Part shown: positions 12,035 to 59,454 of the stretch, piece by piece
Position numbering within the stretch: the stretch's first letter is position 1
How the letters are laid out: each line of letters starts with the position of its first letter
Assembly (NCBI GenBank): GCA_003635315.1
Contig: PYJD01000031.1
Span: forward strand, 157,958 to 221,957
Direction of reading: 5' to 3'
Length of the DNA stretch: 64,000 nucleotides
Source: Candidatus Poribacteria bacterium
GTDB lineage: Bacteria; Poribacteria; WGA-4E; WGA-3G
Made by a program: the position numbers and the translations under genes
The notes under the pieces: model-generated
Database searches by the model: none
Told to the model about the DNA's origin: nothing
The model's input: only the letters and a program-made list of their open reading frames with translations

Positions 12035-12420
12035 ATACCACTACCCTCTTGTAGGTCGGGTTGAGGAACGAAACCCATAGGTGTCAACTTAAGAAAATCA
12101 TTCCATTTTATGAGTGTCTTCAGTCCCATAGGGACGATATGTTTATAGAAAAAATGTCAATACAACATTTTGAGTTCCGTAGGAACGGAATGTATATACC
12201 ACAACCCAATTATAAACATTTCGTTCCTACGGAACTCAAGAAAGTTCAGGATAACGGCTTGCTATAAACATATCGTCCCTACAGGACTAAAGAGGATGAC
12301 ATCAACGTCTGTCTATAAACACTCCGTCCTTACCAAATCAACACCAAATGCGCATTTGGCATTTATCGGGACTGAGGCGGCTTTCTGTATTAGAAAATCC
12401 TTAAGTTGACACCTATAGTG
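12035..12420. mobile_element. MITE-like element of family B. It has a leader-like segment, 19-bp perfect terminal inverted repeats (ATAGGTGTCAACTTAAG) and internal GTCCCnnnGGGAC-GGAATGTTTATAG hairpin units in both orientations.
   Basis: CATAGGTGTCAACTTAAG at 12067 and CTTAAGTTGACACCTATAG at 12402 are reverse complements. The interior carries five hairpin units, and the track ORFs inside are spurious. Confidence 0.65.
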
Positions 12421-12467: not shown

Positions 12468-13478
12468 TCACCTGCCTGTATATGCCTTTTTGATTTCAGA
12501 CCAACGTACCGATTTCTTACCAATAGGTGAAACTGACAGTGCGTCTTCATGCCAATCCGCCCCACTCCCCTCAGTTAAATGTGTGTATAGGTTTGAGGTA
12601 AGGTCGTATTTATAAATCTGTGTTGGATGATGTGGGTTTCGATCTCTTTCATATTCAAATGCACTGAACAGCACGGATCGTCCCTCATCCATCCAAGCAA
12701 GAGACGTGCAATACCAATTATTCGGGATATCCAATCTCTGCATGCCACCTTCATCTACATCTTGAATGAGATAATTAAAATGTCCTATCCCCATACGATT
12801 GATAACTAAATCATTAATTTTTATCTCTACAGGCATCAATTCTAATTCACAATACAGTATCTTTTTACCATCCGGTGACCAGCGTGGATAGGAATGATAC
12901 CGTACATTTCTTTCAGGATTGGGTTTTGTCCAGGCATGTGGATTGTCTCCGTTCGCATCCATCATCCAAAGGTGTTTGTCAATAAATTGATGGTCATCAT
13001 TGACATATATAATCTGTTTGCCATCTGGTGACCAGTCAAGTTGATTTATATGTGATCTGGATATTTGTCTAACTTCCCCTGTTTCAAGGTCTACCACATA
13101 CTGTGCGGATAGTCTTCGGGTGAAAGCGATTTTCTTTCCATCAGAAGAAAACGCCAAGTCAATAATTCCAAAATCAGTGTCCGAGACCTGTTGAACACCA
13201 GTACCATCAGCATGCATCATATAGACATTCGTGTCCCTTCTTTGGTCTGGTAACGATGGGTTACGAATAAATGCAATCCGTTTCCCATTAGGTGACCAAT
13301 AAGGAATCTTGTCATAATATGGCGTATCGGTAATTTGTCTCATATTCTCACCGTCGTCGTCCATGACATAGATGTTGCTATTCTCGTTTTGGTAGAGACT
13401 AAAGACGATTTTCGCGTTTGAATTTTCTATAAAAAGAACTAATAGACCTACCACCAAGATTGTCCGTAGTGAAGACAT
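12468..13478 (-). CDS. Periplasmic PD40/WD40-like beta-propeller protein (TolB-like)
   Basis: Signal peptide MSSLRTILVVGLLVLF; repeated PD40 motifs (YWSPNGKRIAF, AFSSDGKKIAF, DWSPDGKQIIY, RWSPDGKKILY). The 5' extension to 13805 in the track is an open frame through a repeat, so the start is placed at ATG 13478. Confidence 0.7.
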   Translation of the reverse strand: MSSLRTILVVGLLVLFIENSNAKIVFSLYQNENSNIYVMDDDGENMRQITDTPYYDKIPYWSPNGKRIAFIRNPSLPDQRRDTNVYMMHADGTGVQQVSDTDFGIIDLAFSSDGKKIAFTRRLSAQYVVDLETGEVRQISRSHINQLDWSPDGKQIIYVNDDHQFIDKHLWMMDANGDNPHAWTKPNPERNVRYHSYPRWSPDGKKILYCELELMPVEIKINDLVINRMGIGHFNYLIQDVDEGGMQRLDIPNNWYCTSLAWMDEGRSVLFSAFEYERDRNPHHPTQIYKYDLTSNLYTHLTEGSGADWHEDALSVSPIGKKSVRWSEIKKAYTGR

Positions 13479-13624
13479 CAGATTACTCCTATGGTCTGTT
13501 ATTGGTAGAAATATAGCAATTCGTATGCCAAACCTAATGTGATGGATTGTTATGTTGTTGCACAATTTAGGGCAAATGTAGAGGTTAATGCACTTTATGG
13601 TGCAAGATAATTGTGCGATTTCTA

Positions 13625-13662
13625 TCCCTCTTGTAGGTCGGGTAGAGGAACGAAACCCACCG
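13625..13662. repeat. Solo copy of the family-B leader segment (CCTCTTGTAGGTCGGGTaGAGGAACGAAACCC)
   Basis: Matches 12035..12066 and, reverse-complemented, 58640..58680. A further fragment lies at ~18458..18488. Confidence 0.6.
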
Positions 13663-13983
13663 AATTCCATACGCGGATTCGACGTTGATTTGGTATAAGA
13701 ACTATGACTTTTTTCATAGTTACTATAAAATCTGTAATCAAGCAATTTCTCGAAAACACTTACTATGACAGGCTTTACAGATAAATTATAGACAACTTGT
13801 TTCATAGTTACTATGAAAATTCATAATAATCAAGTATGTTTTTACATATGGGTTAAACCAATACACTATACACGCAAAAAGTTAAAATCAAACTCTTACA
13901 AACCCGTATTAGATATATCCCTTGCATCATTATCCCATCCTATCTATAATAATAGTATCTCAAAGGGAATTCCCAAATAAGAA

Positions 13984-16900
13984 ATGCCTTACGTTAACAT
14001 CAAAACAACCCACAAACCTATTAAGACCTATTATGACGAACTGGATAATTACACCCAACTCGGTGCGAAAAACGAAGGCACTGTCCGTTCCGCATTCCAA
14101 AATCTCCTTCAACACTATTGTGGTAAATGCAATCTAACTCTTCTCTGCGAAAGAACAAAATATATCGCTGAAAATAGACGTATAACACCCGATGGTGAAG
14201 TCGTAGATTCATACGGAATACCACACGGATATTGGGAAGCAAAAGACACACAAGACGACCTACATACAGAAGCAACCAAAAAATTCGCTGCCGGATACCC
14301 ATCCAAAAACATTGTCTTACAATCCCCCACACATGCACTTCTATATCAACACGATGAGTTGGTGCATGATCTTAACCTCACAGATCCAAAAAACCTTGTA
14401 CAAGTCCTTGAATCCTTTTTCGCATATCAAGCAGAAAATATATCTGCATGGCATACAGCAGTCGCAGAATTTAAGGAGATGGTACCTGAATTAGGTAATA
14501 AATTAAAAGAATTAATAGAAAACGAACGTCAGAACAACTCACACTTTCATGATGCATTCTCTAAATTCCATCAACAATGCCAAGCATCGATTAATCCTAA
14601 CCTCTCTATCCCTGCTGTAGAAGAAATGCTCATTCAACACCTGTTAACGGAACGGCTTTTCAGAACTGTCTTCGACAATCCAGACTTCACAAGAAGAAAC
14701 ATAATCGCTCGGGAAATTGAGAATGTCATAGATGTGTTAACAGAACGTTCGCTCAATAGATCCGAATTCCTCCGACCTTTGGAACGTTTTTACACTACCA
14801 TCGAAAAAACTGCTAATACCATAACCGATTTCTCACAGAAACAGAGTTTTTTAAATACGGTTTATGAACAGTTTTTTCAAGGTTTCTCAGTCAAAGTCGC
14901 AGATACACATGGGATTGTCTACACACCACAACCGATAGTCGATTTTATGGTGAAAAGTGTAGAACATATCCTTCAGACAGAATTCGGTCGTTCCATAGCA
15001 GATGAAGGTGTCCATATTATTGACCCATTTGTTGGGACGGGCAATTTCATTGTTCGCATCATGCAGGAACTTGATCCCATTGCATTAGAACGTAAATATA
15101 CTGCAAATCCTCCCGAACTCCAGTGTAATGAGGTAATGCTGCTACCCTATTACATCGCAAATATGAATATAGAACAACAGTTTTACACCAAGACCAACAG
15201 ATATGCATCCTATGAAGGTCTCTGCCTTGTAGATACATTCGAGTTAGCAGAGGATAAACAGATTCCACTATTAGCACCAGCAAACACACAACGTGTAGAA
15301 AAACAGAAGCAGACACCTATGTTTGTTGTAATTGGTAATCCACCTTACAATGTTGGACAAGTCAATGAGAACGATAATAACAAGAATCGTAAGTATGAGA
15401 CTATGGATAAACGGGTCGCAGAAACTTATGTAAAAGATTCAAAAGCAACTCTTAGAAATAAATTATCTGATCCTTACGTAAAAGCAATTCGATGGGCATC
15501 AGATAGGATTGGGAAAGAAGGAATTGTTGCTTTTGTAACTAATAATGGATTTCTGGATGGTATAGCTTTTGATGGTATGCGTAAACATCTCGCTCAAGAT
15601 TTTAATATAATATACCATATTGATTTTAAGGGTAATGCTCGAACCTCTGGAGAACGACGGAGACAAGAAGGGGGTAATATCTTTGATGATCAAATCCGGG
15701 TTGGTATCGGGATTAGTTTTTTTATAAAGAAAGGCAATTCTACTTCTAAATCAACAAAGGTCTTTATTCATACAGTGGATGAATATTTAAAAGCAAATGA
15801 GAAACAGTCATTATTAACTCAATTCACAGATATTTCAGCTGTTTCATTCAATAAGATCAAGATTGATGAAAAGTATACTTGGCTCACGGAGGGATTGCAT
15901 TCAGAGTTTTATGACTACATTCCTATCGGTATCAAATCTTCAAAAAACAATAAAGAACCTAAAAGTACAATTTTTAATATTTATTCCTTAGGAGTAGCTA
16001 CAAATAGGGATTACCTTGCCTATTCTTATAATTTATCCCTATTAGAGGATAAGGTAAAAACATTTATAGAAATCTATAATACATCATTAGATAGAAGAAA
16101 AAGGCAAGATAAAAAACACTCTATAGATGATTCAATAGATACTAATGATCCACGCATTAAATGGACGCGACAAGTTAAGAGATCATTAAATAAAATGGAA
16201 TCAAACAATTTTGAAGTGACCCACATACGTAGAGCATTATATCGTCCGTTTAATAGACAATATCTCTATTTTGATAATTTTTGGAATGAGGAACGATATC
16301 AACAATATAGAATTTATCCTACCAAAGATACAGAATTAGAAAACATGGCAATCTGTGTTAGCGGAATAGGAGGGAAAAAACCGTTCCAAACATTGGCAGT
16401 TGGTATGATACCAGATCTTCATTTCACAGGTGATTCACAATGCTTTCCTTTTTATACATACGACGAGGATGGCTCAAACAGACGAGAAAACATTACGGAT
16501 TGGGCATTAAATGCATTTCAAACTCAATACAAAGACAACAGTATTACCAAATGGGACATCTTCCACTATAATTACGGTCTATTACATCATCCCGAATATC
16601 GTGAGAAATACCAAGCCAACCTAAAACGGGACCTACCACACATCCCTTTCGTTAAAGATTTCTGGGGATTTACAAAGGCAGGGGCACGATTAGCTGAAAT
16701 ACATGTCAACTACGAATCACAACCAGAATACGAATATGTTATACTCATTCAAAACCCCGATGTTCCTCTCAATTGGCGGGTAGAAAAAATGAAACTCTCC
16801 AAAGACAAAACTTCCCTTGTCTATAACAACTTCCTAACAATTGACGGTATACCACTAAAAGCCCTCGACTATCGACTCGGTACACGTTCAGCATTGGAAT

Positions 16901-17079
16901 GGATAATCAACCAATATTGTGTCAAAACAGACAAACGGAGCGGTATCGTCAACGACCCCAACCGTGAAGATGATCCACAATACATCGTCAGGTTAATCCG
17001 TCAAGTCATCACAATCAGTTTAGAGACTGTAGACATTGTAGAAGAATTACCTAAATTAGACATTCTCAATATTGAATAA
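13984..17079 (+). CDS. Type IIL (MmeI-like) single-chain restriction-modification enzyme with endonuclease, N6-adenine methyltransferase and target-recognition domains
   Basis: N-terminal PD-ExK motif D-x9-EAK (DSYGIPHGYWEAKD) as in MmeI. Methyltransferase motif I IIDPFVGTGNF and motif IV VIGNPPYNVGQ. 1031 aa with a large C-terminal target-recognition domain. No separate methyltransferase gene adjacent. Confidence 0.8.
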   Translation: MPYVNIKTTHKPIKTYYDELDNYTQLGAKNEGTVRSAFQNLLQHYCGKCNLTLLCERTKYIAENRRITPDGEVVDSYGIPHGYWEAKDTQDDLHTEATKKFAAGYPSKNIVLQSPTHALLYQHDELVHDLNLTDPKNLVQVLESFFAYQAENISAWHTAVAEFKEMVPELGNKLKELIENERQNNSHFHDAFSKFHQQCQASINPNLSIPAVEEMLIQHLLTERLFRTVFDNPDFTRRNIIAREIENVIDVLTERSLNRSEFLRPLERFYTTIEKTANTITDFSQKQSFLNTVYEQFFQGFSVKVADTHGIVYTPQPIVDFMVKSVEHILQTEFGRSIADEGVHIIDPFVGTGNFIVRIMQELDPIALERKYTANPPELQCNEVMLLPYYIANMNIEQQFYTKTNRYASYEGLCLVDTFELAEDKQIPLLAPANTQRVEKQKQTPMFVVIGNPPYNVGQVNENDNNKNRKYETMDKRVAETYVKDSKATLRNKLSDPYVKAIRWASDRIGKEGIVAFVTNNGFLDGIAFDGMRKHLAQDFNIIYHIDFKGNARTSGERRRQEGGNIFDDQIRVGIGISFFIKKGNSTSKSTKVFIHTVDEYLKANEKQSLLTQFTDISAVSFNKIKIDEKYTWLTEGLHSEFYDYIPIGIKSSKNNKEPKSTIFNIYSLGVATNRDYLAYSYNLSLLEDKVKTFIEIYNTSLDRRKRQDKKHSIDDSIDTNDPRIKWTRQVKRSLNKMESNNFEVTHIRRALYRPFNRQYLYFDNFWNEERYQQYRIYPTKDTELENMAICVSGIGGKKPFQTLAVGMIPDLHFTGDSQCFPFYTYDEDGSNRRENITDWALNAFQTQYKDNSITKWDIFHYNYGLLHHPEYREKYQANLKRDLPHIPFVKDFWGFTKAGARLAEIHVNYESQPEYEYVILIQNPDVPLNWRVEKMKLSKDKTSLVYNNFLTIDGIPLKALDYRLGTRSALEWIINQYCVKTDKRSGIVNDPNREDDPQYIVRLIRQVITISLETVDIVEELPKLDILNIE

Positions 17080-18105: not shown

Positions 18106-18187
18106 AAAAACACCAGATTTCCAATGGTGAGATGTTTTTCAATCACGACGAATCCGTCCCAATCCCTCTTCTCCGCGGAATCCGCGT

Positions 18188-18291
18188 AATACCATTTCCA
18201 ATTAAAAAACTCTCTTTTTGTAGCACAAACTTTCAGTTTTTGTCTTCCCTGTTTCATTCCTAACAGTCGGTAATGAGATAATCATAAATAG
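18188..18291 (+). mobile_element. MITE-A copy (terminal inverted repeat ATACCATTTCTAATT / TAGAAATGGTAT; core hairpin CACAAACT-ttc-AGTTTGTG)
   Basis: Nested inverted repeats; partial copies follow at 18296..18350 and 18430..18460. The track ORF 18009..18257 (peptide GRQKLKVCATK) is an artefact of this repeat. Confidence 0.65.
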
Positions 18292-18549
18292 AAATAGGTA
18301 TTCCTAATACCATTTCTACATGAATATGTCACTTCTTGTAGCATAAACTACCAGACCAAATGCTGATTACATATTTTTTTAATAAAATTGAAAATTAAAT
18401 GAAGAAAATAACTATATCTAACAACTAACATTACCAAAAGCTACTTTTTTAGCATAAACTTCGAGAAGGTAGGGAAGGAACGAACCCACCATCCACAGTT
18501 CCACCTTTCCAATCTTCCAATTCCGTACTTTTATGGGAAGTATATAATT

Positions 18550-18968
18550 AGAGAATAAATGATGAAAATCTATAAAAACGATCCTAAATACCAATACCCT
18601 CTTTATGTCAAAAAAACAGCTTTAATATGCAGTTTGAAAAACACAAAATCAGCAAGGAAAGAAAAACACAAAATCACACTTTTTGGAAATTCTTATAAAG
18701 TCAATTCAAAATGGAGTGAACTCAGTCTATGACAGAGGTTAGAGGGGTAATTTACACTAATTTCAATCCTACAAAATGTAGGAAAAAGTGTAACTTTTTT
18801 CACTTTTTACACACTTTTTCACCACAGGGAAAAATCAACATTTTCACGATTTATTATATGGGAATTTAGGATTAAAGGTCTGTTTTTGACCCCTATTCGT
18901 TCGTCTGGATATTAGGATTAAATGTTCAATTTACGAATATGAGTTTTAATACAATTTCTAAATGAAAA
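18550..18968 (+). repeat. ~420-bp non-coding element, copy 1. About 80-85% identical to the reverse complement of 59455..59883.
   Basis: Colinear match across the whole length (AGAGAATAAATGATGAaAAtCTATAAAAACGATCCTAAATACCA ... GGGAATTTAGGATTAAAGGTCTGTTTTTG ... TATTAGGATTAAA). Contains hairpin + AAAAGTGTAACTTTTTTCAC motif. Confidence 0.7.
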
Positions 18969-19015
18969 TGTCTCTCTTTGTAGCATAAACTGATAGTTTG
19001 TGCCACATTACGCTT
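18935..19015 (+). mobile_element. MITE-A variant copy (core CATAAACT-gat-AGTTTGTG)
   Basis: Same architecture as other MITE-A copies, with compensatory substitutions in the stem. Confidence 0.5.
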
Positions 19016-19252
19016 CAGTTCTACTGTAACTATTGTAAAAATTAAGGCAGGATATCTAAAACTGAATAGTCCTGCAAATATATTAAAAGTACTTGTCAAA
19101 ATAGAGGAATTATACAATACTATATTGTAGAATCTTTAAGAATCTCAAATGAATAATTTAAAATACAAAAATAATACATACAAAAGAACATCACATTACT
19201 TACCGAAATCGTTTAGAAAAAATATCAATCAAGCTAAACGAAGGAGAATAAA

Positions 19253-22210
19253 TTGAAAGTCTTAAAACTTATTCTATTTTTCTCATTTATCTTTTCTGTT
19301 CCAGTTTCAATAGCCTATGAATACCAGTGGATAAATAATGAAGAAATCGAAGGGGCAGACAGCGTTACAGAGGTTAAGCCTCTCCAAGTCATTTTTCTTG
19401 ATGAACCCATTGAGGTGGTAACACACAGTGCCTCTTTGCGTTTGATGCAAAAGTATTCTGTATACCTTGGCACAGAATGGAGTCCGGGGAACGCATATCG
19501 ACTGCTTAAAACTTTCGAATCCATACCCCAACTGACAAACAATCCTTATCATGTTGAACCCACAGTACCTTATTCCTTATGGAAACTGACCCGAAAACAC
19601 ATTCAGGGTGACATCGAAATAGATGTTAGAAATAGACAGACTATTGTTACTGTTTCAGAGGGTGCGTTTACCTATACTGAACCGAGATTGGCAGAGATTG
19701 AAGGTGTGGAAGGACGCTACTTTTCGAAACGACTACATCACGCAGTTGTTCGGTTCGTAACAGATGACGGTAGAGACAGACAAGCAATTGAGTACATATT
19801 GAACAAACGTTATGGGATCAGTTTAAATGTACCCGACTACACAGAATTGACGCGACACACAACAGGTGAGCACGCTGCGCGTTTCACAACCTTTAAAGAC
19901 GAAGAGGTGTTGGATCTCGTCAATATGATTGAGGAATTCCCAACTGGCATGCATAAAATTACGGGACTGAATTACATCATTCGACGTTTAGATGGAACAC
20001 CCCACCCACTTTATCCCACTGCTCCCGCAGTCGCATGGACACAGAGCGGTTACATTGAGTTCATGGAATCCGCATTTCTGGAACAAGGAGCAGACTATAT
20101 CCACCGTTTAATCCTTCATGAAAAGGCACACTTTTTGTGGGAATACCTATTTGATGATCAACTCAAACAGGATTGGATTGAGCTTGGAGGTTGGTATGAA
20201 AATCCAGACGATGTGGATGGGTGGTCTACGACAAAACAGCTTGAGTTTGTTTCCGCGTATGCACACGGCAAGAATCCTAATGAGGATATGGCAGAGAGTA
20301 TCAGTCATTACATCGTTCGACCTGACATACTCCGGTCACGCGCACCAGACAAATATCAATTCATCCAAGATCGGATTATGCACGGCACACGTTATATATC
20401 ACGCATACGCGAAGATCTAACCTTCCAGGTCTACAACCTTTATCCTGATGTCGTGTATCCAGGACGAATTATACGGGTGAATATAGATGTTAGTGGTGAA
20501 CCGGAAGCAGATAAACGTATAGTGATTGAAATAGAACTACACCAGACAGGAGATTTAGACACAGCACAAGCATCAAGTGTCAGAATATTTAGTGACAAAG
20601 GCACATACTTTGACATCTGGCTGTATCCAATAAAAAACGGTATATATACGGATACAGGACATATTCTGCGAGGTGAGGTAGTTTTATCGCGCTATGCTGC
20701 ACACGGATATTGGGGTCCAGATGCGATTACTCTCAAAGATGCTCAAGGAAATGAACGACACCAATCACAAACCGATTTTGGATGGAAACTCTATATCAAC
20801 AGTCCGTTAGCTGACACGGAGGCACCGATTTATGTAAAAAACTCTATGCGTCTTTCCTTGTCAGATGATATGGAAAATGGAAGGCCACTGCAAATATTGA
20901 CGGCTCAGTGGAAGATCATTGAGCAAAATGATATTGAATCCATTTCAGCACGAGCAAACGACGAAAGTGATGAGACTTATTCACGACATTCGTTTAACTT
21001 TGGAACATACGATAAACAGACCGGTTTAGCGACTGTTAAGCTTATTATCCCTGATTACTTCCAAACCGGGATATATTCACTGAACCATATAAGTATGAAA
21101 GATATCGCATTAAACACACGCGGCGTCTACTTTACTAAACCGCATTCCAGCATAAGGGACGAAGAAGAAATCCTTGATGAGAAACCTGCCACCATCCATA
21201 TTAAAACAACAAACCCTGATAGCAATCCCCCTATTCTTGATTTGAACTGGATTACTGTAACAGCAGAACCGACAAATCCTGATGAACCAAACGGGGAAAC
21301 ACGAGTTGATATTACCTTCAGAATTAAGGATGACATCAGTGGATATAGTAAGACATATATTGATTTACGTGATCCACATGGCGTGGTTCACACCTTTTCA
21401 CATCTTCATAGCGATTATTACAAAACCTATTTCACAGAGGATCCATTTGACTTTAAAATCTACAACAAAACGATTATTCTTCCTGTTGGTAGCGTCCCGG
21501 GTACATGGGGTATTTCTCAGATGACAGTTCAAGATAAGGCACAAAACATCCTACGCGCCGACTTCACAGAAATTGTCCGTTTTGTTGTGAATGATATGTC
21601 TGTCATATCTCAATACGACGTCAATGGTGATGGAAAGATAGACATACTGGATTTAATAATGGTAGCAAATGCATTTGGAACGACTGAGAATGATAGTGCG
21701 GATGTCAACGGTGATGGTGCTGTCAATATACAAGATTTAGTAGGAGTTGCCAGTCATATCGGTGAAGGATCTTTAGAGGCACCGACTACACACAATCTAA
21801 CTGCCAACCAAATACAAAGTTGGATCACACAAGCAACACAAGTCGATGACGGTAGTCCTGCTTTCCAGTCAGGTATTCGTGTGTTACAAGACCTCTTACT
21901 CGAACTGCAACCAGAAAAGACTGAACTGTTGCCAAATTATCCTAACCCGTTTAACCCGGAGACATGGATTCCCTATAAATTGGCAAATCCAAGTGATATA
22001 ATAATAAATATCTATGATTCGAGTGGCAGCCTTGTGCGTCAACTTGACTTGGGTCATCAGTCAACCGGTATATACCAGATTCGTAGTCGTGCTGCATATT
22101 GGGATGGTCGGAATAAGCTTGGGGAACGGGTGGCGAATGGAATCTATTTTTATCAACTGCAGACGGATAGTGTTTCACCACCACTTAGGAAAATGGTTAT
22201 TCTGAAATAA
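19253..22210 (+). CDS. Secreted multidomain zinc metalloprotease (HExxH) with dockerin-type repeats and a T9SS (Por) C-terminal sorting domain
   Basis: Signal peptide; HEKAHFLWEY (HExxH); dockerin repeats DVNGDGKIDILDLIMV and DVNGDGAVNIQDLVGV; C-terminus LLPNYPNPFNPETWIPYKL...NGIYFYQL...KMVILK typical of a T9SS sorting domain. Confidence 0.75.
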   Translation: MKVLKLILFFSFIFSVPVSIAYEYQWINNEEIEGADSVTEVKPLQVIFLDEPIEVVTHSASLRLMQKYSVYLGTEWSPGNAYRLLKTFESIPQLTNNPYHVEPTVPYSLWKLTRKHIQGDIEIDVRNRQTIVTVSEGAFTYTEPRLAEIEGVEGRYFSKRLHHAVVRFVTDDGRDRQAIEYILNKRYGISLNVPDYTELTRHTTGEHAARFTTFKDEEVLDLVNMIEEFPTGMHKITGLNYIIRRLDGTPHPLYPTAPAVAWTQSGYIEFMESAFLEQGADYIHRLILHEKAHFLWEYLFDDQLKQDWIELGGWYENPDDVDGWSTTKQLEFVSAYAHGKNPNEDMAESISHYIVRPDILRSRAPDKYQFIQDRIMHGTRYISRIREDLTFQVYNLYPDVVYPGRIIRVNIDVSGEPEADKRIVIEIELHQTGDLDTAQASSVRIFSDKGTYFDIWLYPIKNGIYTDTGHILRGEVVLSRYAAHGYWGPDAITLKDAQGNERHQSQTDFGWKLYINSPLADTEAPIYVKNSMRLSLSDDMENGRPLQILTAQWKIIEQNDIESISARANDESDETYSRHSFNFGTYDKQTGLATVKLIIPDYFQTGIYSLNHISMKDIALNTRGVYFTKPHSSIRDEEEILDEKPATIHIKTTNPDSNPPILDLNWITVTAEPTNPDEPNGETRVDITFRIKDDISGYSKTYIDLRDPHGVVHTFSHLHSDYYKTYFTEDPFDFKIYNKTIILPVGSVPGTWGISQMTVQDKAQNILRADFTEIVRFVVNDMSVISQYDVNGDGKIDILDLIMVANAFGTTENDSADVNGDGAVNIQDLVGVASHIGEGSLEAPTTHNLTANQIQSWITQATQVDDGSPAFQSGIRVLQDLLLELQPEKTELLPNYPNPFNPETWIPYKLANPSDIIINIYDSSGSLVRQLDLGHQSTGIYQIRSRAAYWDGRNKLGERVANGIYFYQLQTDSVSPPLRKMVILK

Positions 22211-22772: not shown

Positions 22773-22841
22773 CCGGGAACATCTATCTTCATAATAAGCA
22801 CACGTAGGGTTCCAACCTATAAGAACCCCAAAATAAAACAA

Positions 22842-22955
22842 TACCATTTCTAATTTATAAACTCTCTTTTTTGTAGCACAAACTTTCAGTTTGTGTCTTC
22901 CTTGTTTCATTTCTAACAGCCAGTAATGAGAGAAATAATAAATTTGAAATGGTAT
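22842..22955 (+). mobile_element. MITE-A copy (reference copy)
   Basis: ATACCATTTCTAATT...CTCTCTTTTTTGTAGCACAAACTTTCAGTTTGTGTCTTCC...AATGAGAG...TTTGAAATGGTAT; a degenerate second copy lies at ~23040..23110 (core CATAATCTG-tca-GATTGTG). Confidence 0.7.
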
Positions 22956-24427: not shown

Positions 24428-24629
24428 CATCTTTAGAATCTACATGTTTATCCTACCGTGTACCACATTTTCACTTGAATTATCAGACCAATATGGACAA
24501 TGGTAGAACATAATGATAATTTTACCATACCGATATCAATTATACCATAGGGTTATTTAGTTTTCTAAATTTCCACTACTTTTTATTTATTCCGTAATTG
24601 TATATATTGTTATCTTATATAGGTCTTTA

Positions 24630-24980
24630 GTCCCATCGGGACGGAATGTTTATAGCAAAAGTGTATACACCATAGGGAGTTCCATCAGGACGGAATGTTT
24701 ATAGAAAAAATGCGAACCCCTATCTTGAGTTCCGACATATGCTATATGCTTATTTGACGTTGATTAGGTAGGGACGGAATGTCTATAGAAGAACGTATTC
24801 ACACAGTCTTGAGTCCCATCGGGACGGAATGTTTATAGAAAAATGCGAACCCCTATCTTGAGTTCCGTAGGAACGGAATGTTTATAAAAGAACGTATTCA
24901 CACAGTCTTGAGTCCCATCGGGACGGAATGTCTATAGAAAAATGCGAACCCTATCTTGAGTTCTGTATGAACAGCATAAT
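24630..24980 (+). repeat. Family-B tandem array. It carries about 7 units of a ~26-bp hairpin repeat (GTCCCATCGGGACGGAATGTTTATAG) separated by ~23-bp segments that themselves recur in alternation. CRISPR-like but not CRISPR.
   Basis: Stem variants GTCCC/GGGAC and GTTCC/GGAAC (compensatory). 'Spacers' AAAAATGCGAACCCCTATCTTGA and AAGAACGTATTCACACAGTCTTGA each occur 3 times. Confidence 0.7.
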
Positions 24981-25529
24981 CAAAAAACATATCGTCACGG
25001 GTGGGTATAAACTTTGAGTAAATAACAATAACGGAAGCCCCTTAAAAATATGACATTTTCATCAACTATTCATGAAATCCTACAAATCGTTGTAGGTTCT
25101 TCCTATTGAGGATCTAACAAATCATCATATAAGTCAATAAAGTATCGTAAAATATTGTTCTTGACAAATACAACCAAATATGTTTTAATTTTGATTGATG
25201 AGTTACGATGTGCCACAGTTTAGAGGGTTTTTGCATCATTATTACGTTAATTCCCTCCTAATGCTTAACAAAATTTACCACTTTTCTAAGGAAAAATAAA
25301 AACGGGGAGATTTCATAAATAGATATAGGAACGAGTGGATCACATGGCGTAGAAATAACAATTATGATTGTAATGAGGTTGCCATGGGAGCACATGTTGA
25401 CGATGTTTTGAGATCGTTAGTTAGTTCAAACAAACTTAAAAGATTAGGTAATGGATGGGATAGAGTTGTTAGTACTGAAGCAATAAACATAGAAGTACCA
25501 TCGATATTTTAGAACATGATTTCGTAAAG

Positions 25530-25651
25530 TTAAGACAAGTATTCTTTCTCAAATTCAATTGGTGTTAAATAGCCTAATGCTGAGTGAGATCGTTTATGGT
25601 TATACACTTTTTCACTAAACTGTCCAATGCGTATATGGTATCGTGATATCA
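25530..25651 (-). pseudogene. C-terminal fragment of an IS3-family transposase (integrase-core end)
   Basis: Minus-strand translation MTMMISRYHIRIGQFSEKVYNHKRSHSALGYLTPIEFEKEYLS* matches the conserved rve-domain C-terminus (YNxxRxHSALGYxTPxEF). An in-frame stop lies immediately upstream, so only a ~43-aa remnant remains. Confidence 0.6.
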
Positions 25652-25689
25652 TCATAGTCATTCAGATGGATTTCACCCCTCCTTGACAG

Positions 25690-26334
25690 AAGGTTGAAAA
25701 TGCAGAGATAACTGAAGCACCCCAACTCAAAGGTGATGTAAACGGCGATGGTATCGTCAACATACAAGATTTGGTGTTAGTCACTTCTAATCTTGGGAAA
25801 TAGGGACAAATGCTGCGGATGTGAACGGTGATGGCATCGTTAATATTCAGGATCTCGTCCTTGTTGCTGGTGCATTAGGTACAAGTGCAGCCTCACCATC
25901 TATACTTTCCCAATCATTAGAGACACTACAACTGCAGATGTCAAATTGTGGTTATCTCAAGCACAACAACTAAATCTCACGGATACTACCTCCCAGCGCA
26001 GTAGCCTGTTCTTAGAACAACTCCCTGAGACGTTAACACCGAAAGAGACAGCACTGCTACCAAACTATCCAAATCCGTTCAACCCAGAGACGTGGATACC
26101 GTATCAGTTAGCGAAGGATGCGAATGTTGCACTGCATATCTATGCTGTAAACGGCACATTGGTGAGAACATTAGCACTCGGATATCAGGCTGCGGTCGGT
26201 ATCAGAACCGTAGTCGTGCCGCGTATTGGGATGGTAAGAATGAATTCGGTGAACGCGTGGCGAGTGCAGTGTATTTCTATACACATACAGCAGGTAATTT
26301 CACTGCTACGCGTAAGATGTTGATACGGAAGTAA
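25690..26334 (+). pseudogene. Frameshifted remnant of a dockerin + T9SS C-terminal domain, copied from the 3' end of the 19253..22210 gene
   Basis: Frames contain GDVNGDGIVNIQDLVLV, ADVNGDGIVNIQDLVLVAG, then LLPNYPNPFNPETWIPYQL...HIYAVNGTLVRTLALGYQ, and in another frame RSRAAYWDGKNEFGERVASAVYFY...RKMLIRK. Confidence 0.7.
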
Positions 26335-26443
26335 ACCTTATCAACGAAACACGGAAGAGTGTAAGCTAACACCCTTCTATTAACAACCTGACTGCACAAC
26401 TACACATTGCATTCATAAATCAATAAAGGAGTTTATGTTGAAA

Positions 26444-27076
26444 ACTTTAGTTGTAAATGTAAATAATTTTGTATCAAGACCACTAATTTTGAGTTTTATT
26501 ATAGTCGTTTTAGTTATGTTCTCTAAAGCTTCTGTTTCGGTAGCTGAATTTGAGGTAGGAACACAATTCGGATTTACCCGACTTGTTCCCACAGATGAAA
26601 CTTAATCTTCAGTATCGGTTCTACAGGTACCCTCAGGAGAAATATCTGGTGTTGGTGCCTCGCCTTACCTAACTTTCTTTCCTCATAAGCAGCTTGCTGT
26701 TAGTCCTGCATTCGATTTTACACGGCTAACGACAACAACGTCTTTTACACTTTGGGGAGAAAGTGAAAAAGTAACCGTGAGTGCAAGCCAACTCTACTTA
26801 GGAAGTAAATTTCATTATTTTTTTATCGGTCATCAAGTGTCTAATCCTTATTTATTTGGAAAAGTGTCCATAACCGCTCCATTTAGTGAAAACAGTGACA
26901 GTGAAGTATTATTTCATACTGGGATTGGTCTTGGTTACCAATTGCCCATTGTCCCTGCTTATTTTCTTCGGTTGGAAGGACAGTACAACCGTTTGATAAA
27001 TGAAGACGAAAACGCTAACGGTTTTTCAGTAATGATGGGTATTGGTGTGCGGTTTGGAAACAACGAAGAAAGATAG
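26444..27076 (+). pseudogene. Probable disrupted outer-membrane beta-barrel gene (signal peptide in one frame, rest of protein in another)
   Basis: MLKTLVVNV...VLVMFSKASVSVAEFEVGTQFGFTRLVPTDET* stops at 26604. Beta-barrel-like sequence continues in a different frame to 27076 (…GIGLGYQLPIVPAYFLRLEGQYNR…GIGVRFGNNEER). Confidence 0.4.
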
Positions 27077-27344
27077 CACACTGAGAGAACACGTGGTAAC
27101 GATTTTACCACTACAGCAAAATGTTGATATAATGTAGTAGGTTGGGTCGGTTCTCCTTAACGCTCAATCCAACCTACGAAATCCACTATACCTCACCTAC
27201 AACGGAAATACGCAAAATGAATCAATACGCAAAATCTAATATAATAGCGTTATTTACAATACCTTTGTAAAATTAGGTAGCAACATAGGTTAGTATAAAT
27301 CAATATAAGGCACTATATCGGTAAGGTTCTATAATCTGTAAACC

Positions 27345-27385
27345 CAAAAACAGGTAGGTAATATATCAATTACCTACCTGTTTTT
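27345..27385. terminator. Bidirectional rho-independent terminator
   Basis: AAAAACAGGTAGGTAAT-atatca-ATTACCTACCTGTTTTT (perfect 15-bp stem flanked by A/T runs). Confidence 0.8.
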
Positions 27386-27639
27386 ATATAAAAGTTATTC
27401 AAACACATTAACAAGCCGTGTCCGGACAATCAAGTTTTCATATTTTTGCCAATATTGATAACACCAATCCGTCCATCTTAAGGTAATCCTTACAGAGAAA
27501 CATAAACATACACCCAGATAGCCAGAAACGATCTTATACATTTTTTTATCATTGTTATGTCATTGAAGATTAACTATTGGTTGGGTATAGTATGTATTTT
27601 GATTTACGCATCAATTAATACCATTACAGATATAAAATA

Positions 27640-27720
27640 TCTCTCCCTTGTAACCTAAACTGCCAGTTTGTGGCACAATCCGCTTTCTCTCTAACAACAG
27701 GTAATCGAAAAAATATAATA
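27640..27720 (+). mobile_element. MITE-A variant copy (core CCTAAACT-gcc-AGTTTGTG)
   Basis: Same spacing and flanks as other copies, with stem covariation. Confidence 0.5.
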
Positions 27721-27766
27721 AAAATTGAAGAAATATTAAAGAACAAACATCACATTTATAAATTAG

Positions 27767-27797
27767 TTGACAGAATAGTAAACATACGTTACAATAC
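27767..27797 (+). promoter_or_regulatory. Sigma-70-like promoter (TTGACA-17-TACAAT)
   Basis: TTGACAgaatagtaaacatacgtTACAAT; the nearest downstream ORF is 27910..28200. Confidence 0.45.
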
Positions 27798-27909
27798 CAG
27801 ATAGTGAATTATTTTAATACTCAAACTAATGCCAAACCAGTATGAATTAAGTATACATATACACTGTTTTACAAATATGACTTCTATCACACAAATTAAT
27901 GGACATTAA

Positions 27910-28200
27910 ATGTTAAAGAATCCATCAAGAACACTTTTTTATTTTTTTACACAAATTCGTAAATTGGCTATAAACATAGGTGGCTACTTACCTAACAGCG
28001 AATATACAAAAATTGAGGTGACAGAAAAAAGTTACGATTTCGTAACTTTTTCAAACAATAGTAATAAAGAAATTACAAACTTTCCGAAGCGGTCAAAATC
28101 ATCTAAAAATAAGAACAGCAAAACTGGTAAAAGTGTATATTGGATCTTCATCGGAAATGTAAGGAAGATACAAAATCCCACAATTTCCGAATTATTATAA
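27910..28200 (+). CDS. Hypothetical small basic protein (96 aa)
   Basis: ORF downstream of a consensus promoter; no recognisable domain and no ribosome-binding site. Confidence 0.25.
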   Translation: MLKNPSRTLFYFFTQIRKLAINIGGYLPNSEYTKIEVTEKSYDFVTFSNNSNKEITNFPKRSKSSKNKNSKTGKSVYWIFIGNVRKIQNPTISELL

Positions 28201-28477
28201 TTCTAATAAAAACACCGATGAACACAGACTGTGACAGGGCGGACAGCGGTTTTTATAATGACACACAATGTGTCAAAAAGTGTAACATTTTAAACATACT
28301 AATATATAATATATTACTATTGTTAATTAGAAAAATGGTGTAAATTACGGAGAATTACTTGGTTAAATATATAGGTATAGTGAAAAATAAAGATACCTTA
28401 AAAATAAGATTTAGGTGATATATTCCAAACTGATAATATAGGTTTTTGAGATATGTGATAGATAACAAATTACATCT

Positions 28478-28587
28478 AATACCATTTCTAATTGATGAAC
28501 TCTATTTTTTGTAGCACAAACTTTTAGTTTGTGTCTTCCCAGTTTCATTCCTAACTGCCGGTAATGGGACAATAATAAATAGAAATG
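28478..28587 (+). mobile_element. MITE-A copy
   Basis: ATACCATTTCTAATT...TGTAGCACAAACTTTTAGTTTGTGTC...AAATAGAAATGGTAT; track ORF 28411..28617 is spurious. Confidence 0.7.
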
Positions 28588-28876
28588 GTATAACAACAGA
28601 CAATAACTATAATCCAATAATATACTATTAGATAAACCAGAATCCTACTATTTTCACGCTTTCTAAACTTGCAATTATGGATAAAATAAGGTATAATAAT
28701 ACTGAAATTGTACAATAAATTAATAATATTCGAAGATATTTTTGGTTAAAATTCTACTGCTTACTCCTTACCTCAAGAGCAACTACTTCTCAACTTATAC
28801 TTATAGGATTTTAGCTTACTTGAATGATAGAAAGATATTATTAAACGCTCTCTCAGGTAAATGTATTGAGGAATAA

Positions 28877-29890
<1,014 letters not shown>

Positions 29891-53972: not shown

Positions 53973-54039
53973 GTTTAACTATATTACTCCATTTACCTGA
54001 TATTTATATATTGTATAAATCTAAGTTATACATTTTCTA

Positions 54040-54139
54040 TTAATTTGTATCTCATTACCGGTTGTTAGGAATGAAAAGGGAAGGCACAAACTAACAGATT
54101 ATGCTTCTACAATGAGATATTTTCAATTAGAAATGGTAT
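54040..54139 (-). mobile_element. MITE-A copy (reverse orientation) between lptA and lptB
   Basis: Reverse complement gives ATACCATTTCTAATT...TGTAGAAGCATAATCTGTTAGTTTGTGCC...GGTAATGAGAT. Confidence 0.6.
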
Positions 54140-54269
54140 TAGATAAACACATCTGGTTATCAACCTACTTAGAAAACCTTTATCATCTAATACAACTATT
54201 TCTCAATACATATAATTTGTTGTTAAGTAATCCTATATTGGATTAAAAACATTTCGATTTATTAACAGT

Positions 54270-58257: not shown

Positions 58258-58322
58258 TTTAAATGAGGATGTTTCATAATTGTAGAGCCATAGGCGTAAA
58301 TTAGCTCCTTTCCCAAACCTGG

Positions 58323-58680
58323 TAGAGTTGGTTTGGAACCGAATGGAACTCCTTATGGTGTATACACCTTTGCTATAAACATTCCGTCCCTACGAGACTC
58401 CTTATGGTGTTTACACCTTTGCTATAAACATTCCGTCCCTATGGAACTCACTATGGTGTTTACACCTTTGCTATAAACATTCCGTCCCTACGGGACTCAC
58501 TATGGTGTTTACACCTTTGCTATAAACATTCCGTCCCTACGGGACTCCTTATGGTGTATACACTTTTGCTATAAACATATCGTCCCAATGGGACTAAAGA
58601 CATCAATATCAGACAACTATAAACCACTAAGTTGACACTTATGGGGTTTCGTTCCTCAACCCAACCTACAAGAGGTGCTG
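58323..58680 (-). repeat. Family-B tandem array: 6 units of 49 bp (27-bp hairpin repeat + 22-bp palindromic GGTGTATACACC-containing segment) ending in the family-B leader/terminal-inverted-repeat segment
   Basis: Plus strand reads (CTATAAACATTCCGTCCCTACGGGACT + CCTTATGGTGTATACACCTTTG) x~5, then ...CTAAGTTGACACTTATGGGGTTTCGTTCCTCAACCCAACCTACAAGAGG. The 22-bp segments are near-identical, so they are not CRISPR spacers. Confidence 0.7.
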
Positions 58681-59454
58681 CCATATACCTTTCGTCTCTC
58701 CGTGGATTTGACTCATCCAACTTGAGAGATGCAGTATTAATTACTATAACGTTAATTTATATTGGATATCAATCTCCTTTCAGAAGTTTCGATTCATCAA
58801 TTTAGAATTTGTCTAAAAACGGGAAAATGTTACACTTTTTCCTACATTCTGTAGGATTTTTTTTCGGTGAAATTATGGCTTTTAGACCAGTGCTGTACTG
58901 GGTTCAGCACCATCAATTTAGAGGAAAGCACAATTATGTATTTTTTCATTTTTGTGTTATTTTTCTGATTTCTGTTTTTTGTGTAAAATTATCACATATG
59001 TTAATATTTCGTTGATAATTATGAGTTGTTAGTTTATAGTTATCAATTAGCGATTGTTGGTTGTCAGATAAAGGAATATCTGCCCAAGGAATTACTGTAT
59101 ATCTCATGGTCTTTTTTTGAGATATTTCTATATATTTTCTGATCCAGAATGAGCTGAATTTAATTGAGAAAGTTACGATACTGTAACTTTTTTCATGTAT
59201 ATCTTTCATTTTGAAATAGTATAATCCTTGATTTTAGTTTTTCAAGTTTTTCAAGTCGGTTTTTAAAATCTCCCAATTTGGAGTGTCTTTCAGTAATTCT
59301 GGCACTATGCTCTTAAAGGAAATCATTTACAGTGCGAATGAATTGACTTTATATGGTTCGTTATTGTTTATAGATGTTGTACCGATTCTAAGAATGATGT
59401 TGCATAACAAGCTAATTTGGATATCATCTCATACTGTCTAACCTAAAGGTTATG

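Follow-up and report, generated by a model that had tools for sequence, protein, structure and literature searches.

A CRISPR-like array of hairpin units in a Poribacteria genome is probably the locally amplified interior of a decayed MITE

In the BOX elements of Streptococcus pneumoniae and S. suis, TIR-bearing terminal modules enclose tandem boxB modules of ~45 bp, the number of which varies by slippage or unequal crossover; in S. suis, the same internal module is found within different terminal modules, and insertions of one element into another occur (Croucher et al. 2011, PMC3049150). The array described here, which lies in a 64-kb stretch of Poribacteria DNA (the window), resembles BOX in architecture only, as a composite MITE-like repeat with a variable internal tandem array. 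There is no sequence similarity, the phylum is another one, and the present module combines a covarying 5-bp hairpin with a conserved box and also occurs in inverted pairs. A second family of relevance is Acido-Lenti-1 (RF01687), a candidate sRNA described from 89 instances in few genomes and without demonstrated function (Weinberg et al. 2010, PMC2864571). Like the present units, it is multi-copy, often tandem, and present in Acidobacteria; the TIR-bounded elements and palindromic cores of the present family are unmentioned in the 2010 description (PMC2864571).

Other known systems share features with the locus as well. REP, BIME, and REPIN elements are likewise short, dispersed, intergenic hairpins with compensatory changes, arranged in direct and inverted clusters and with loops targeted by IS; the present module differs from them in its much shorter stem, in that no RAYT was found, and in a 13-nt single-stranded box that is as conserved as the hairpin. 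REPs are usually species-specific, whereas the present module family is common to several phyla. DDE-family MITEs have in common with the elements reported below their TIRs, target duplications, small size, non-coding nature, and multiple copies, and one of the element types (X) belongs with IS630. CRISPR arrays, too, have direct repeats that are partly palindromic and evenly interspaced, and an AT-rich region lies upstream of them; the module family differs from them in its recurring spacers, its use of both orientations, the lack of cas, and its many dispersed mini-clusters. Literature searches for the repeat sequence and for repeats of Poribacteria brought up no relevant work.

Structure of the array and its genomic context

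The initial annotation had placed about seven hairpin units with covarying stems at this locus, and on reading the sequence we found its coordinates, unit count, and covarying stems to be correct (Table 1). Each hairpin comprises a 5-bp stem (GTCCC/GGGAC or GTTCC/GGAAC) and a 3-nt loop. Spacer S1, CAAAAGTGTATACACCATAGGGA, is unlike the two other spacer types of the array, which read AAAAA(A)TGCGAACC(C)CTATCTTGA in S2, S4, and S6 and AAGAACGTATTCACACAGTCTTGA in S3 and S5. Spacers 2 to 6 are hence two sequences in alternation, which produces a 99-bp period, in agreement with the alternation and ~100-bp super-period originally proposed, and the array as a whole consists of unit 1 plus about 2.5 to 3 copies of a 99-bp two-unit block. 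Tandem Repeats Finder (TRF) reported a period of 99 with 2.1 copies and 93% matches at 24768-24972, as well as periods of 49 and 50, and the 85-nt blocks 24768-24852 and 24867-24951 are 95% identical. Throughout the 64-kb window, the box (≤2 mismatches) occurs 17 times versus 2.85 expected, a count reached in 0 of 100 shuffles.

For comparison we used 8-kb pieces of other genomes, about 0.9 Mb altogether, which are designated by L-numbers. Inserts of the kind found in the hairpin loop of U3 (..CCGTTGATTTGGTA) occupy the same place within units of loci L001, L026, L042, and L064.

Between positions 24428 and 25614, no ORF of ≥50 aa is present on either strand. The array is neighbored by genes for a thiO-like oxidoreductase (upstream), a sulfatase, PD40, and MatE, and the window codes for tRNA synthetase, GatB, GAPDH, TIM, and sigma-54, a housekeeping context; a tRNA scan of the window found none. 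Exact-sequence look-up of the thiO protein and GAPDH returned no record, and the nearest relatives in metagenomes (85% and 71% identity) had only thiO in common with the window.

Table 1. Features of the module family in the 64-kb window
Feature	Position	Strand	Description
Second locus of module family	12077-12416	.	2 units (+), then 2 full and 1 partial (-); units within 12123-12330, convergent
Left TIR of W-type MITE	24548-24564	+	TAGGGTTATTTAGTTTT; matches TIR CAGGGTTATTTAGTTTT of complete Poribacteria copies L019, L064, L037, and L101
W-type MITE left arm ("leader")	24565-24629	+	ends TCTTTA directly before unit 1
Hairpin-unit array	24630-24985	+	seven ~49-50-bp units, each hairpin + GGAATGTYTATAG + 22-24 nt
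U1	hairpin 24630-24642, box 24643-24655	+	from sequence reading
U2	start 24679	+	one stem mismatch
U3	24729-24788	+	hairpin interrupted by 34-nt insertion
34-nt insertion in U3 hairpin loop	24734-24767	+	ends ...CGTTGATTAG, then loop GTA
U4	start 24813	+	
U5	start 24862	+	stem GTTCC/GGAAC
U6	start 24912	+	
U7	24960-24985	+	degenerate
Inverted-unit remnant, degenerate	24986-25005	-	AACATATCGTCACGGGTGGG; aligns with CTATAAACATATCGTCCCTACGGGAC of L019 and L064
Probable decayed MITE right arm	25006-25095	+	weak alignment to L019 and L064 right arms; end uncertain
Third locus of module family	58290-58642	-	five 49-bp units at 58348-58600

A probable W-type MITE frame of the array

The region 24535-24660, which spans the left end of the array and what precedes it, aligns with L019 and L064 at a mean column identity of 84%, and the last ~35 nt of the left arm resemble the leader of another array in the window (58601-58629). 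Complete W-type copies in Poribacteria MAGs have 17-bp TIRs, with the inverted TIR at the far end. Exact 9-bp TSDs flank copies L064 (CTTTCAGAG) and L037 (AAGTGGTAA), and the flanking duplication of L019 matches at 7 of 9 bases; two copies within one genome have ~400 bp in common. The interiors of complete copies vary in module content and hold one or two units per arm, versus six to seven in the window array. With its CAGGG ends and 9-bp duplication, the W type presumably resembles the ISAs1 family of the ISfinder table. Neither the window nor the other-genome loci searched contained an autonomous W-type element or any transposase bounded by W-type ends.

On the right side, repeat matches end at about 24990. 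The inverted-unit remnant that follows U7 would, from its alignment, represent the right half of an ancestral convergent core. No right TIR could be recognized when this side was aligned with the right arms of L019 and L064, and since the target duplication of the window copy is equally unrecognizable, its MITE status is drawn from the left half. Judging from the left arm and TIR that precede the array, and from the complete copies with TIRs, 9-bp TSDs, and one or two units per arm, the array probably arose by local amplification inside a non-autonomous mobile element (MITE), now a decayed remnant; a tandemly amplified MITE interior was one of the options that the initial annotation had offered. 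The elements are small and non-coding and occur in many dispersed copies (at least 105 loci), as MITEs do.

In related genomes, one or two modules per arm, often forming a convergent ++-- core, lie between terminal arms of several MITE types, and the type with TIR CAGGGTTATTTAGTTTT would be moved in trans by a DDE transposase, since it makes 9-bp target duplications. The window copy has kept the W-type left TIR and left arm, an expanded set of left units, and the inverted-unit stump. We propose that a block of 99 bp (GTCCC unit, spacer A, GTTCC unit, spacer B) was duplicated about 2.5 to 3 times, the identical 26-nt repeats allowing either replication slippage or unequal recombination. Later, the U3 loop would have received a small hairpin element, and the right arm would have decayed. 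An array of this origin would need no host function; if transcription from the thiO-like gene upstream runs through it, the array would supply the 3' UTR with small stem-loops.

Likeness to CRISPR and protein-binding arrays

With its repeat-spacer regularity, palindromic repeat, AT-rich conserved "leader," and degenerate last repeat, the array could be read as a genuine CRISPR array, either degenerate or of an unrecognized type, with short repeats of 26 to 28 nt and spacers of 22 to 24 nt. The repeat length and the 49-50-bp period fall within the CRISPR pattern of regularly spaced repeats of about 23 to 50 nt, and there are copies that have identical flanks and yet another spacer, as CRISPR would produce. 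However, the spacers are not unique. They recur within the array, between arrays of the window, and, over more than 100 loci, as diverged homologous families with conserved ends. Among 139 spacers of 20 to 28 nt (133 of them 23 to 26 nt long), 300 pairs are related at an edit distance of ≤7, versus 0 after shuffling; related spacers have the ends AAAACGT...CTTGA in common, and spacer A resembles the first spacer of loci L008 and L019. Two spacers and the repeat found no match in viral contigs, phages, or plasmids. The annotated absence of cas genes from the window was borne out by PADLOC, which matched none of the 44 window ORFs to cas, and no neighbor gene recurs among the 105 listed loci. 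While the array at 24630-24985 alone runs in one orientation, although an inverted-unit stump follows it, the family does not: its units lie on both strands in convergent pairs and are spread over more than 100 mini-clusters, mostly of one or two units. We therefore give the CRISPR reading next to no probability; the array at 24630-24985 looks like CRISPR and is not, as the description of a CRISPR mimic with recurring spacers had implied.

Arrays with such short repeats and short spacers may be mistaken for orphan CRISPR arrays in Poribacteria and Acidobacteriota MAGs, and repeat-type arrays can be told from CRISPR by their recurring spacers, convergent copies, and MITE arms. These observations are relevant to RNA-family curators and to researchers of bacterial repeats and reveal no new kind of system.

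The regular ~50-bp phasing and the strongly conserved 13-nt box would also suit a DNA-level protein-binding array (iteron-like or operator) or the RNA repeat of a type III antitoxin (ToxI-like). Against this, no rep, par, or toxN-like gene lies beside any of the three window arrays, the context is chromosomal and housekeeping, and the family is dispersed over unrelated loci. Instead of an initiator gene or origin there are housekeeping genes, with no plasmid or phage matches, and within 600 bp downstream of the array there is no ORF of ≥50 aa that could serve as a ToxN-type partner. Stem covariation, moreover, favors a folded single strand over a duplex operator. Such a function is very improbable, and the earlier suggestion of an iteron-like or protein-binding array gained no support from the housekeeping context and the dispersal of the family at more than 100 loci.

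Dispersal of the module family

The 26-nt pattern was found in at least 105 stretches, from about 20 Poribacteria MAGs, about 20 Acidobacteriota MAGs (Blastocatellia/Pyrinomonadaceae), and one Flavobacterium. The conserved half of the module consists of (T)TTGA/TTTA, the A-GTCCC-GTA-GGGAC hairpin, GGAATGTYTATAG, and AAAA, and the other half, of ~12 to 15 nt, is less conserved. Among the matches listed, 331 of 349 units lie outside ORFs. They are about twice as frequent as background in convergent intergenic regions and show no strong strand bias, sharing the strand of the upstream gene in 160 of 284 cases. When the 1143 ORFs of the 105 listed loci were clustered, no protein family recurred beside the units; the clusters near units were large paralogous families only (Gfo/Idh/MocA, sulfatase, TPR, SDR, and sigma-54 activators).

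Most same-strand runs are short. The 239 runs listed contain one (123 runs), two (97), three (12), four (4), five (2), or six units (1), and the sole run of six, the longest, is the array at 24630-24985. Convergent, palindromic arrangements (++-- clusters) are common. Modules occur in at least four differently bounded elements, namely, W, X, a TAATACCATTT type, and an ACGAGTTGTGC type, and their form in Acidobacteriota is a palindromic element of ~170 bp with neither outer TIR nor TSD. Given these many element types and the TIR-less form, the module may be the primary entity, with the MITE arms incidental. A search for filled versus empty sites of the bare module gave no clean case and found copy-number and spacer variants instead.

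Hairpin covariation and possible readers of the module

Among 656 box matches, 294 have all five stem pairs at the exact offset, versus 2 to 10 at shifted offsets, and the stems include GTCCC/GGGAC, GCCCC/GGGGC, GCTCC/GGAGC, ACTCC/GGAGT, and GTTCC/GGAAC. In an alignment of 45 sequences, 94.6% of stem cells pair, versus 84.3% in shuffles, none of 500 of which reached 94.6%; double changes occur in four of the five stem pairs, and slid controls pair at 35 to 53%. By this comparison of sequences, the module hairpin is under selection for pairing, most likely because a putative module-propagating protein reads folded ssDNA or RNA. Self-templated repair of palindromes could be another source of stem covariation. 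The near-identity of the 26-mer across phyla and the covariation of its stem amount to more constraint than would be expected of a passive interior and count against the MITE reading.

One possibility is that mobility belongs to the hairpin module itself, or to a palindromic core of four hairpins, as in REP or REPIN elements. The folded ssDNA would then be read by an HUH/Y1 transposase (RAYT or IS200/IS605 type), the MITE arms would be other elements that host the module or landed around it, and arrays would grow as each module recreates its own TTGA/TTTA target. Such mobility is consistent with the stem covariation, with a core in Acidobacteriota and Flavobacterium that has no TSD and no TIR beyond the hairpin, and with the T-T-n-A that, in the consensus, precedes every unit, including the first of each cluster. 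It is consistent also with the presence of modules inside several unrelated TIR-bounded elements, with different spacers in copies that have near-identical flanks, and with the mismatches on the strand used in the initial annotation (G:T 14 versus A:C 6; p = 0.12). However, when the window and loci totaling about 0.9 Mb were searched by tblastn with a RAYT query from E. coli, a weak test, nothing significant for a Y1/RAYT gene emerged, the 5-bp stem is shorter than in typical REPs, and no pair of filled and empty sites with module-exact boundaries was found. We regard this alternative to an amplified MITE interior as rather unlikely.

It is likewise doubtful, and in our view quite unlikely, that the 26-nt module (A-GTCCC-GTA-GGGAC-GGAATGTTTATAG) is the recognition signal of a putative trans-acting protein and not passive cargo. 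Candidate readers would be an HUH/Y1-type enzyme that recognizes hairpins or a protein that binds RNA, and the reader would be common to Poribacteria, Acidobacteriota, and some Bacteroidota. The window and the other-genome loci searched yielded no hairpin-specific protein. If true, this would make the family a cross-phylum REP-like system, with Acido-Lenti-1 as one branch of widespread mobile hairpin modules, and the arrays would be repeated module insertion sites or multi-copy RNA genes and not simple slippage products.

Relationship to Acido-Lenti-1

On the strand opposite to that of the initial annotation, the unit has the sequence CUAUAAACAUUCC-GUCCC-UAC-GGGAC-U, and Acido-Lenti-1 seed members read, e.g., CUAUUUCAUUCC-GUCGC-UGC-GCGAC-U or ...GUCCC-UAC-GGGAC-G; in both, a 12- to 13-nt linker starting with CUA leads into a 5-bp stem with a 3-nt loop, and a U follows. 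With cmscan, this strand aligns to positions 22/24 to 45 of RF01687, with scores of 13.1 bits for the window and of 15.5 and 12.3 bits for L073. Identity to the 3' halves of 20 seed sequences is 14 to 21 of 27 positions (18 to 21 for 17 of the 20), with z values of 3.4 to 6.1 against shuffles for 19 of 20. The seed coordinates in Lentisphaera show periods of 69 to 74, 110 to 115, and 192 nt.

The unit might therefore be a structured RNA related to Acido-Lenti-1, acting as a small RNA or a protein-binding hairpin, with arrays as multi-copy genes or as 3'-UTR elements that stabilize or terminate transcripts. Besides these matches, such a role is favored by the stem covariation, the approximately twofold enrichment of units between convergent genes, a count of three terminator-like hairpins on the array's minus strand (0.7 expected), and the two-hairpin layout of RF01687 in the units at 58348-58600. 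However, RF01687 has a gathering score of 37, far above the 12.3 to 15.5 bits obtained here. Its 5' hairpin (8-bp stem, 4-nt loop, model positions 1 to 21) is absent, and in the units the variable spacer takes its place; only the units at 58348-58600 have a hairpin there, of 5 bp and 4 nt away, where that of the family abuts the GCUA linker. At the gathering threshold, Rfam matched nothing in the window and 18 loci but two tRNAs in L001. The units have no consistent orientation relative to genes, the whole array folds no better than shuffles on either strand (z = −0.09 and −1.24), a promoter scan found no promoter-like sites inside units, and mobile DNA typically shows such palindromic and nested arrangements and such a TIR/TSD context. 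An RNA function thus has a low probability. As the 26-nt module is near-identical across phyla and links to Acido-Lenti-1, the motif may be a mobile-repeat module and not a free-standing sRNA.

Other arrays of the window and X-type ends

Four features go beyond the initial annotation: the match of spacer S1 to another array, the two further arrays of the window, the U3 loop insertion, and the inverted-unit remnant. The locus at 12077-12416 has inverted X-type TIRs (ATAGGTGTCAACTTAAG and CTTAAGTTGACACCTAT), which are IS630-like and TA-flanked. The locus at 58290-58642 has an X-type TIR (ATAAGTGTCAACTTAG) at 58642-58627 and a degenerate inverted TIR at 58304-58290; its units carry a second hairpin, GGTGT-TT-ACACC, and its five spacers are all near-identical (CAAAGGTGTAAACACCATAGTGA) and match S1 of the array at 24630-24985. 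X-type TIRs bracket both of these arrays and many further loci, and in locus L043 they bracket an IS630-family transposase gene; the two arrays sit within an IS630-type MITE.

The intergenic DNA of Poribacteria seems to be a mosaic in which hairpin modules and MITEs are nested.

A different IS630-type element, in L057 (TIR TGAAGATTAAG), was considered as the parent of the units and rejected. This IS and its ~110-bp MITE enter TA in many unrelated hairpin loops, and the units are therefore their targets and not parts of them.

The array and its spacers

The array of hairpin units at 24630-24985 (plus strand) agrees with its description in the initial annotation, which placed it at 24630-24980. 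Every intact box is preceded by a 13-nt hairpin, GTCCC-ATC-GGGAC or GTTCC-GTA-GGAAC, with one mismatch in unit 2; both of the stem types reported there as covarying are thus present. The two alternating intervening sequences and the ~100-bp periodicity also held: spacers 2, 4, and 6 form one type and spacers 3 and 5 another, TRF returned a period of 99 (24768-24972; 2.1 copies, 93% matches), and a pair of 85-nt blocks in the array shares 95% identity. No ORF of at least 50 aa crosses the array region. The window contains 17 boxes versus 2.85 expected by chance, and its 13 intact units, as identified by a structure-aware scan, all lie within three loci. The spacer shared by the five units of the third cluster is spacer 1 of the array.

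Features of the window discussed in the text
Feature	Position	Strand	Basis
Six intact boxes (GGAATGTTTATAG or one-base variants)	24643, 24692, 24776, 24826, 24875, 24925	+	box search
Seventh unit, degenerate	24960-24985	+	sequence reading
34-nt insertion splitting unit 3 hairpin	24734-24767	+	sequence reading
Spacer 1, CAAAAGTGTATACACCATAGGGA			
Spacers 2, 4, 6, AAAAA(A)TGCGAACC(C)CTATCTTGA			
Spacers 3, 5, AAGAACGTATTCACACAGTCTTGA			
Second cluster: 2 units facing 2 full and 1 partial unit (-)	12123-12330	+/-	
Third cluster: five 49-bp units, 89-92% identical to reference copy	58348-58600	-	
Second W-type TIR end	~19058-19074	-	
Hairpin motif CTCTTGTAGGTYGGGTTGAGGAACGAAACCC, 5' of X-type TIRs	12044-12077, 13626-13659, ~58655-58690		
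Other repeat family: TAATACCATTTC ends, GTAGCACAAACTTTCAGTTTGTG hairpin	18187-18991, 22840-22934, 28478-28594, 54025-54144		
Inverted repeat, ~450 bp, arms ~40 kb apart, 77-87% complementary	18527-18975 / 59464-59903		
Tandem and dispersed TGTCTGAATCGCGGAT..ACGCGGATGACA-type repeats, 94-bp period	60186-60430		
Type ISP/IIG restriction-modification enzyme gene	13984-17079		Pfam Type_ISP_C, 8.9e-98; PADLOC REase_MTase_IIG, 7e-243
thiO-like gene	23288-24427		
Gene-poor stretch, ~4.4 kb, 3' of thiO-like gene	24430-28880		

The array is real, and it is not a CRISPR. As had been noted from the sequence, its spacers are not unique: they recur within the array and in the third cluster, and they form large families across the loci, with 300 pairs of intervals falling within edit distance 7, versus 0 after shuffling. 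Intervals between same-strand neighboring units (n = 139) measure 20 to 28 nt, with 133 of them at 23 to 26 nt, and commonly begin with AAAACGT and end with CTTGA or TTTA. Spacer A, one of the two alternating types, resembles the first core spacer in two loci from other genomes (L008 and L019), and a GTTCC-type unit comes next in all three. Given this spacer homology and the shared ends, the ~50-bp unit is a single repeat, one half of which is conserved while the other evolves fast. Near-identical flanks and repeats with differing variable halves (loci L044/L093 versus L070/L059) may reflect recombination between identical 26-mers. The absence of cas genes from the window was likewise borne out, as none of its ORFs has a cas match.

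The insert in the unit 3 loop is a small hairpin (GGGGAATGCCTAAATGGCATTCATACCGTTGATT.. type) that recurs exactly within unit loops in loci L001, L026, L042, L064, and L096, which suggests either an insertion specific to the loop or a variant unit that has been propagated.

Stem covariation and folding

The sequence comparisons argue that the unit hairpin is selected and that its stem covaries. A fully paired 5-bp stem occurs at the exact offset in 294 of 656 box matches, versus 2 to 10 at offsets shifted by 1 to 3 nt; stems include GTCCC/GGGAC (195), GCCCC/GGGGC (34), GCTCC/GGAGC (16), ACTCC/GGAGT (10), and GTTCC/GGAAC (10). In a hand-picked but diverse alignment of 45 sequences, 94.6% of cells were paired versus 84.3% in shuffles, none of 500 of which reached that value, and four of the five stem pairs changed on both sides (slid controls, 35 to 53%). 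Single mismatches on the strand first read were G:T in 14 cases and A:C in 6 (P = 0.12), an excess that gives a weak hint as to which strand folds. Folding of the whole array was no better than that of shuffles, and its minus strand carries three terminator-like hairpins, in each of which spacer A combines with the stem that follows it, versus 0.7 expected.

A dispersed repeat family

Scanning species-representative genomes for exact matches to the pattern GTYCCNNNGGRACGGAATGTYTATAG yielded at least 105 stretches, with ~0.1 random matches expected by our estimate from the information content of the pattern. The pattern demanded GTYCC/GGRAC stems, other stem types coming from extra units in the matched loci, and the stem diversity of the family is probably underestimated. 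Among the matches listed, which leave out the window's own genome, are ~20 “Candidatus Poribacteria” MAGs, ~20 Acidobacteriota MAGs (Pyrinomonadaceae and Blastocatellia), and one Flavobacterium. Neither the unit nor the two array spacers were found in viral contigs, phage records, or plasmid records.

The usual forms in Poribacteria are unit pairs 50 to 51 bp apart or a convergent ++-- core. In Acidobacteriota and the one Flavobacterium, the form is a ~170-bp palindromic element (outer hairpin and CGAATGTTTATAG, ~23 nt, inner hairpin and GAAATGT, ~27 nt, and then the mirror image) that lacks any additional TIR or target duplication. The four-hairpin copy in the cultured Flavobacterium sp. Sd200 (locus L078, 3560-3800) matches the Acidobacteriota element, and the hairpin module is therefore present in at least three phyla. 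Single units account for 123 of the 239 same-strand runs and pairs for 97; 12 runs have three units, 4 have four, and 2 have five; the only six-unit run, the longest seen, is the array itself. Of 349 units, 331 are intergenic. The array is a member of a dispersed, noncoding, intergenic repeat family, and its spacers recur.

The array within a probable decayed MITE

The sequence upstream of the array (24548-24629) can be aligned, at a mean column identity of 84%, with the left arms of MITEs in loci L019 and L064. Complete copies of this MITE type (W) have the TIR CAGGGTTATTTAGTTTT at either end; their 9-bp target duplications are perfect in L064 (CTTTCAGAG) and L037 (AAGTGGTAA) and agree at 7 of 9 positions in L019. 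Two copies in one MAG have ~400 bp in common. The W type may belong to the ISAs1 family, which has CAGGG ends and 8- to 10-bp duplications. Its interiors vary, being a ++-- core of GTCCC/GTTCC units in L019 and L064, two GCCCC-type units in L101, and a mixture in L037. Downstream of the array, AACATATCGTCACGGGTGGG is the stump of an inverted unit, followed by a poorly conserved right arm in which no right W-type TIR is recognizable.

The array lies next to the arm and TIR of a MITE type whose copies elsewhere carry TIRs and target duplications. Of the options raised in the initial annotation, a tandemly amplified MITE interior is the one that fits: the array is best read as an amplified hairpin-module array in a decayed MITE. 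A normal ++-- core would have become the array when a 99-bp block of two units was duplicated, and insertion into the unit 3 loop and decay of the right arm would have followed.

Other elements that carry or target units

Around the other two arrays (12077-12416 and 58290-58642) the TIR is a different one, (A)TA-GGYGTCAAYTTAAG (X type), which also brackets unit clusters in ~20 Poribacteria loci and, in L043, an IS630-family transposase gene consisting of two ORFs that meet at an A9 run, the C-terminal part being DDE_3-like. Units also lie within elements bounded by TAATACCATTT and by ACGAGTTGTGC and in one TGAAGATTAAG-type MITE. An IS630-type element with TGAAGATTAAG ends was rejected as the owner of the units; its insertions lie at TA within many hairpin loops, those of the units included, and it therefore targets them. 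Locus L057 has a full IS of this type (4297-5810; transposase at 4407-5459, Pfam DDE_3 and HTH), which, like a ~165-bp derivative, interrupts GTCCCG-TA-GGGAC hairpins at the loop TA, and a ~110-bp MITE with the same TIR occupies loops of other hairpin repeats at many loci.

IS630-family elements and MITEs with the TIR GGCGTCAATTTAAG (L043, 1373-2720; L100, 2138-2631; L087, 1155-1610; L080, 5381-5788) are flanked by direct repeats of ~17 to 22 bp, e.g., TGTCATCATTAGAAYTAAT, GACCCGGGTTACAAACC, and the hairpin GGTGCGGTTAGGAAACCGCACC, whereas the duplication expected for the IS630 family is a bare TA. A 97% identical copy of the CTCTTGTAGGTYGGGTTGAGGAACGAAACCC motif lies inside the predicted 5' end of the ORF at 12468-13805 (minus strand), so the start of this ORF may be overextended. 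In three Poribacteria loci (L042, L052, and L043), modules of two units lie between TAATACCATTTC ends. Motifs similar to the repeats at 60186-60430 ('gtctgaatcacggatt') occur in L070, L093, and L106.

Relation to described families

The family belongs to a known general kind but is undescribed; its sequence shows a relationship to one half of the Acido-Lenti-1 motif. No unit in the window and 18 loci matched Rfam at curated thresholds; at permissive thresholds, the sole thematically consistent match was Acido-Lenti-1 (RF01687), on the opposite strand, covering only model positions 22/24-45 at 12.3 to 15.5 bits versus a threshold of 37. In the seed alignment (supplementary file of Weinberg et al. 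2010, PMC2864571), the Koribacter sequence reads CUAUUUCAUUCC-GUCGC-UGC-GCGAC-U, compared with CUAUAAACAUUCC-GUCCC-UAC-GGGAC-U here. Identity to the 20 seed 3' halves is 14 to 21 of 27 positions (18 to 21 for 17 of them), with z scores against shuffles of 3.4 to 6.1 for 19. The 5' hairpin of Acido-Lenti-1 is missing from our units, so the family is a relative rather than a member. By its seed coordinates, Acido-Lenti-1 is also tandem in Lentisphaera, with periods of 69 to 74, 110 to 115, and 192 nt, and no function was given for it (PMC2864571).

In architecture, the family comes closest, among described systems, to the BOX element of pneumococci. There, TIR-bearing terminal modules surround a tandem array in which the number of 45-bp boxB modules shifts by slippage or unequal crossover; in S. 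suis, the same boxB occurs within different terminal modules (PMC3049150).

Gene context

Unit strand equals that of the upstream gene in 160 of 284 cases, with no strong orientation bias, and intervals between convergent genes are about twice as frequent for units (23/106) as in the background (47/416). No neighboring protein family recurs at unit loci, where common neighbors belong to large paralogous families. The window is a housekeeping region (tRNA synthetase, GatB, GAPDH, TIM, and sigma-54) that also encodes sulfatases, PD40 proteins, and FlgD_ig/Por-tail proteins; the type ISP/IIG gene is the only defense-type gene found in it. Taken with the repeats, the sulfatase, PD40, and FlgD_ig/Por-tail genes suggest that the host is Poribacteria-like. 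The nearest metagenome relatives, of which L106 is the closest, have only thiO in common with the window, and in the relative L107, thiS and thiG lie directly 3' of thiO. A short ORF at 25946-26323 resembles the C-terminal part of a 985-aa Dockerin/FlgD_ig protein (22066-22153; 76% over 88 nt) and is possibly a gene fragment.
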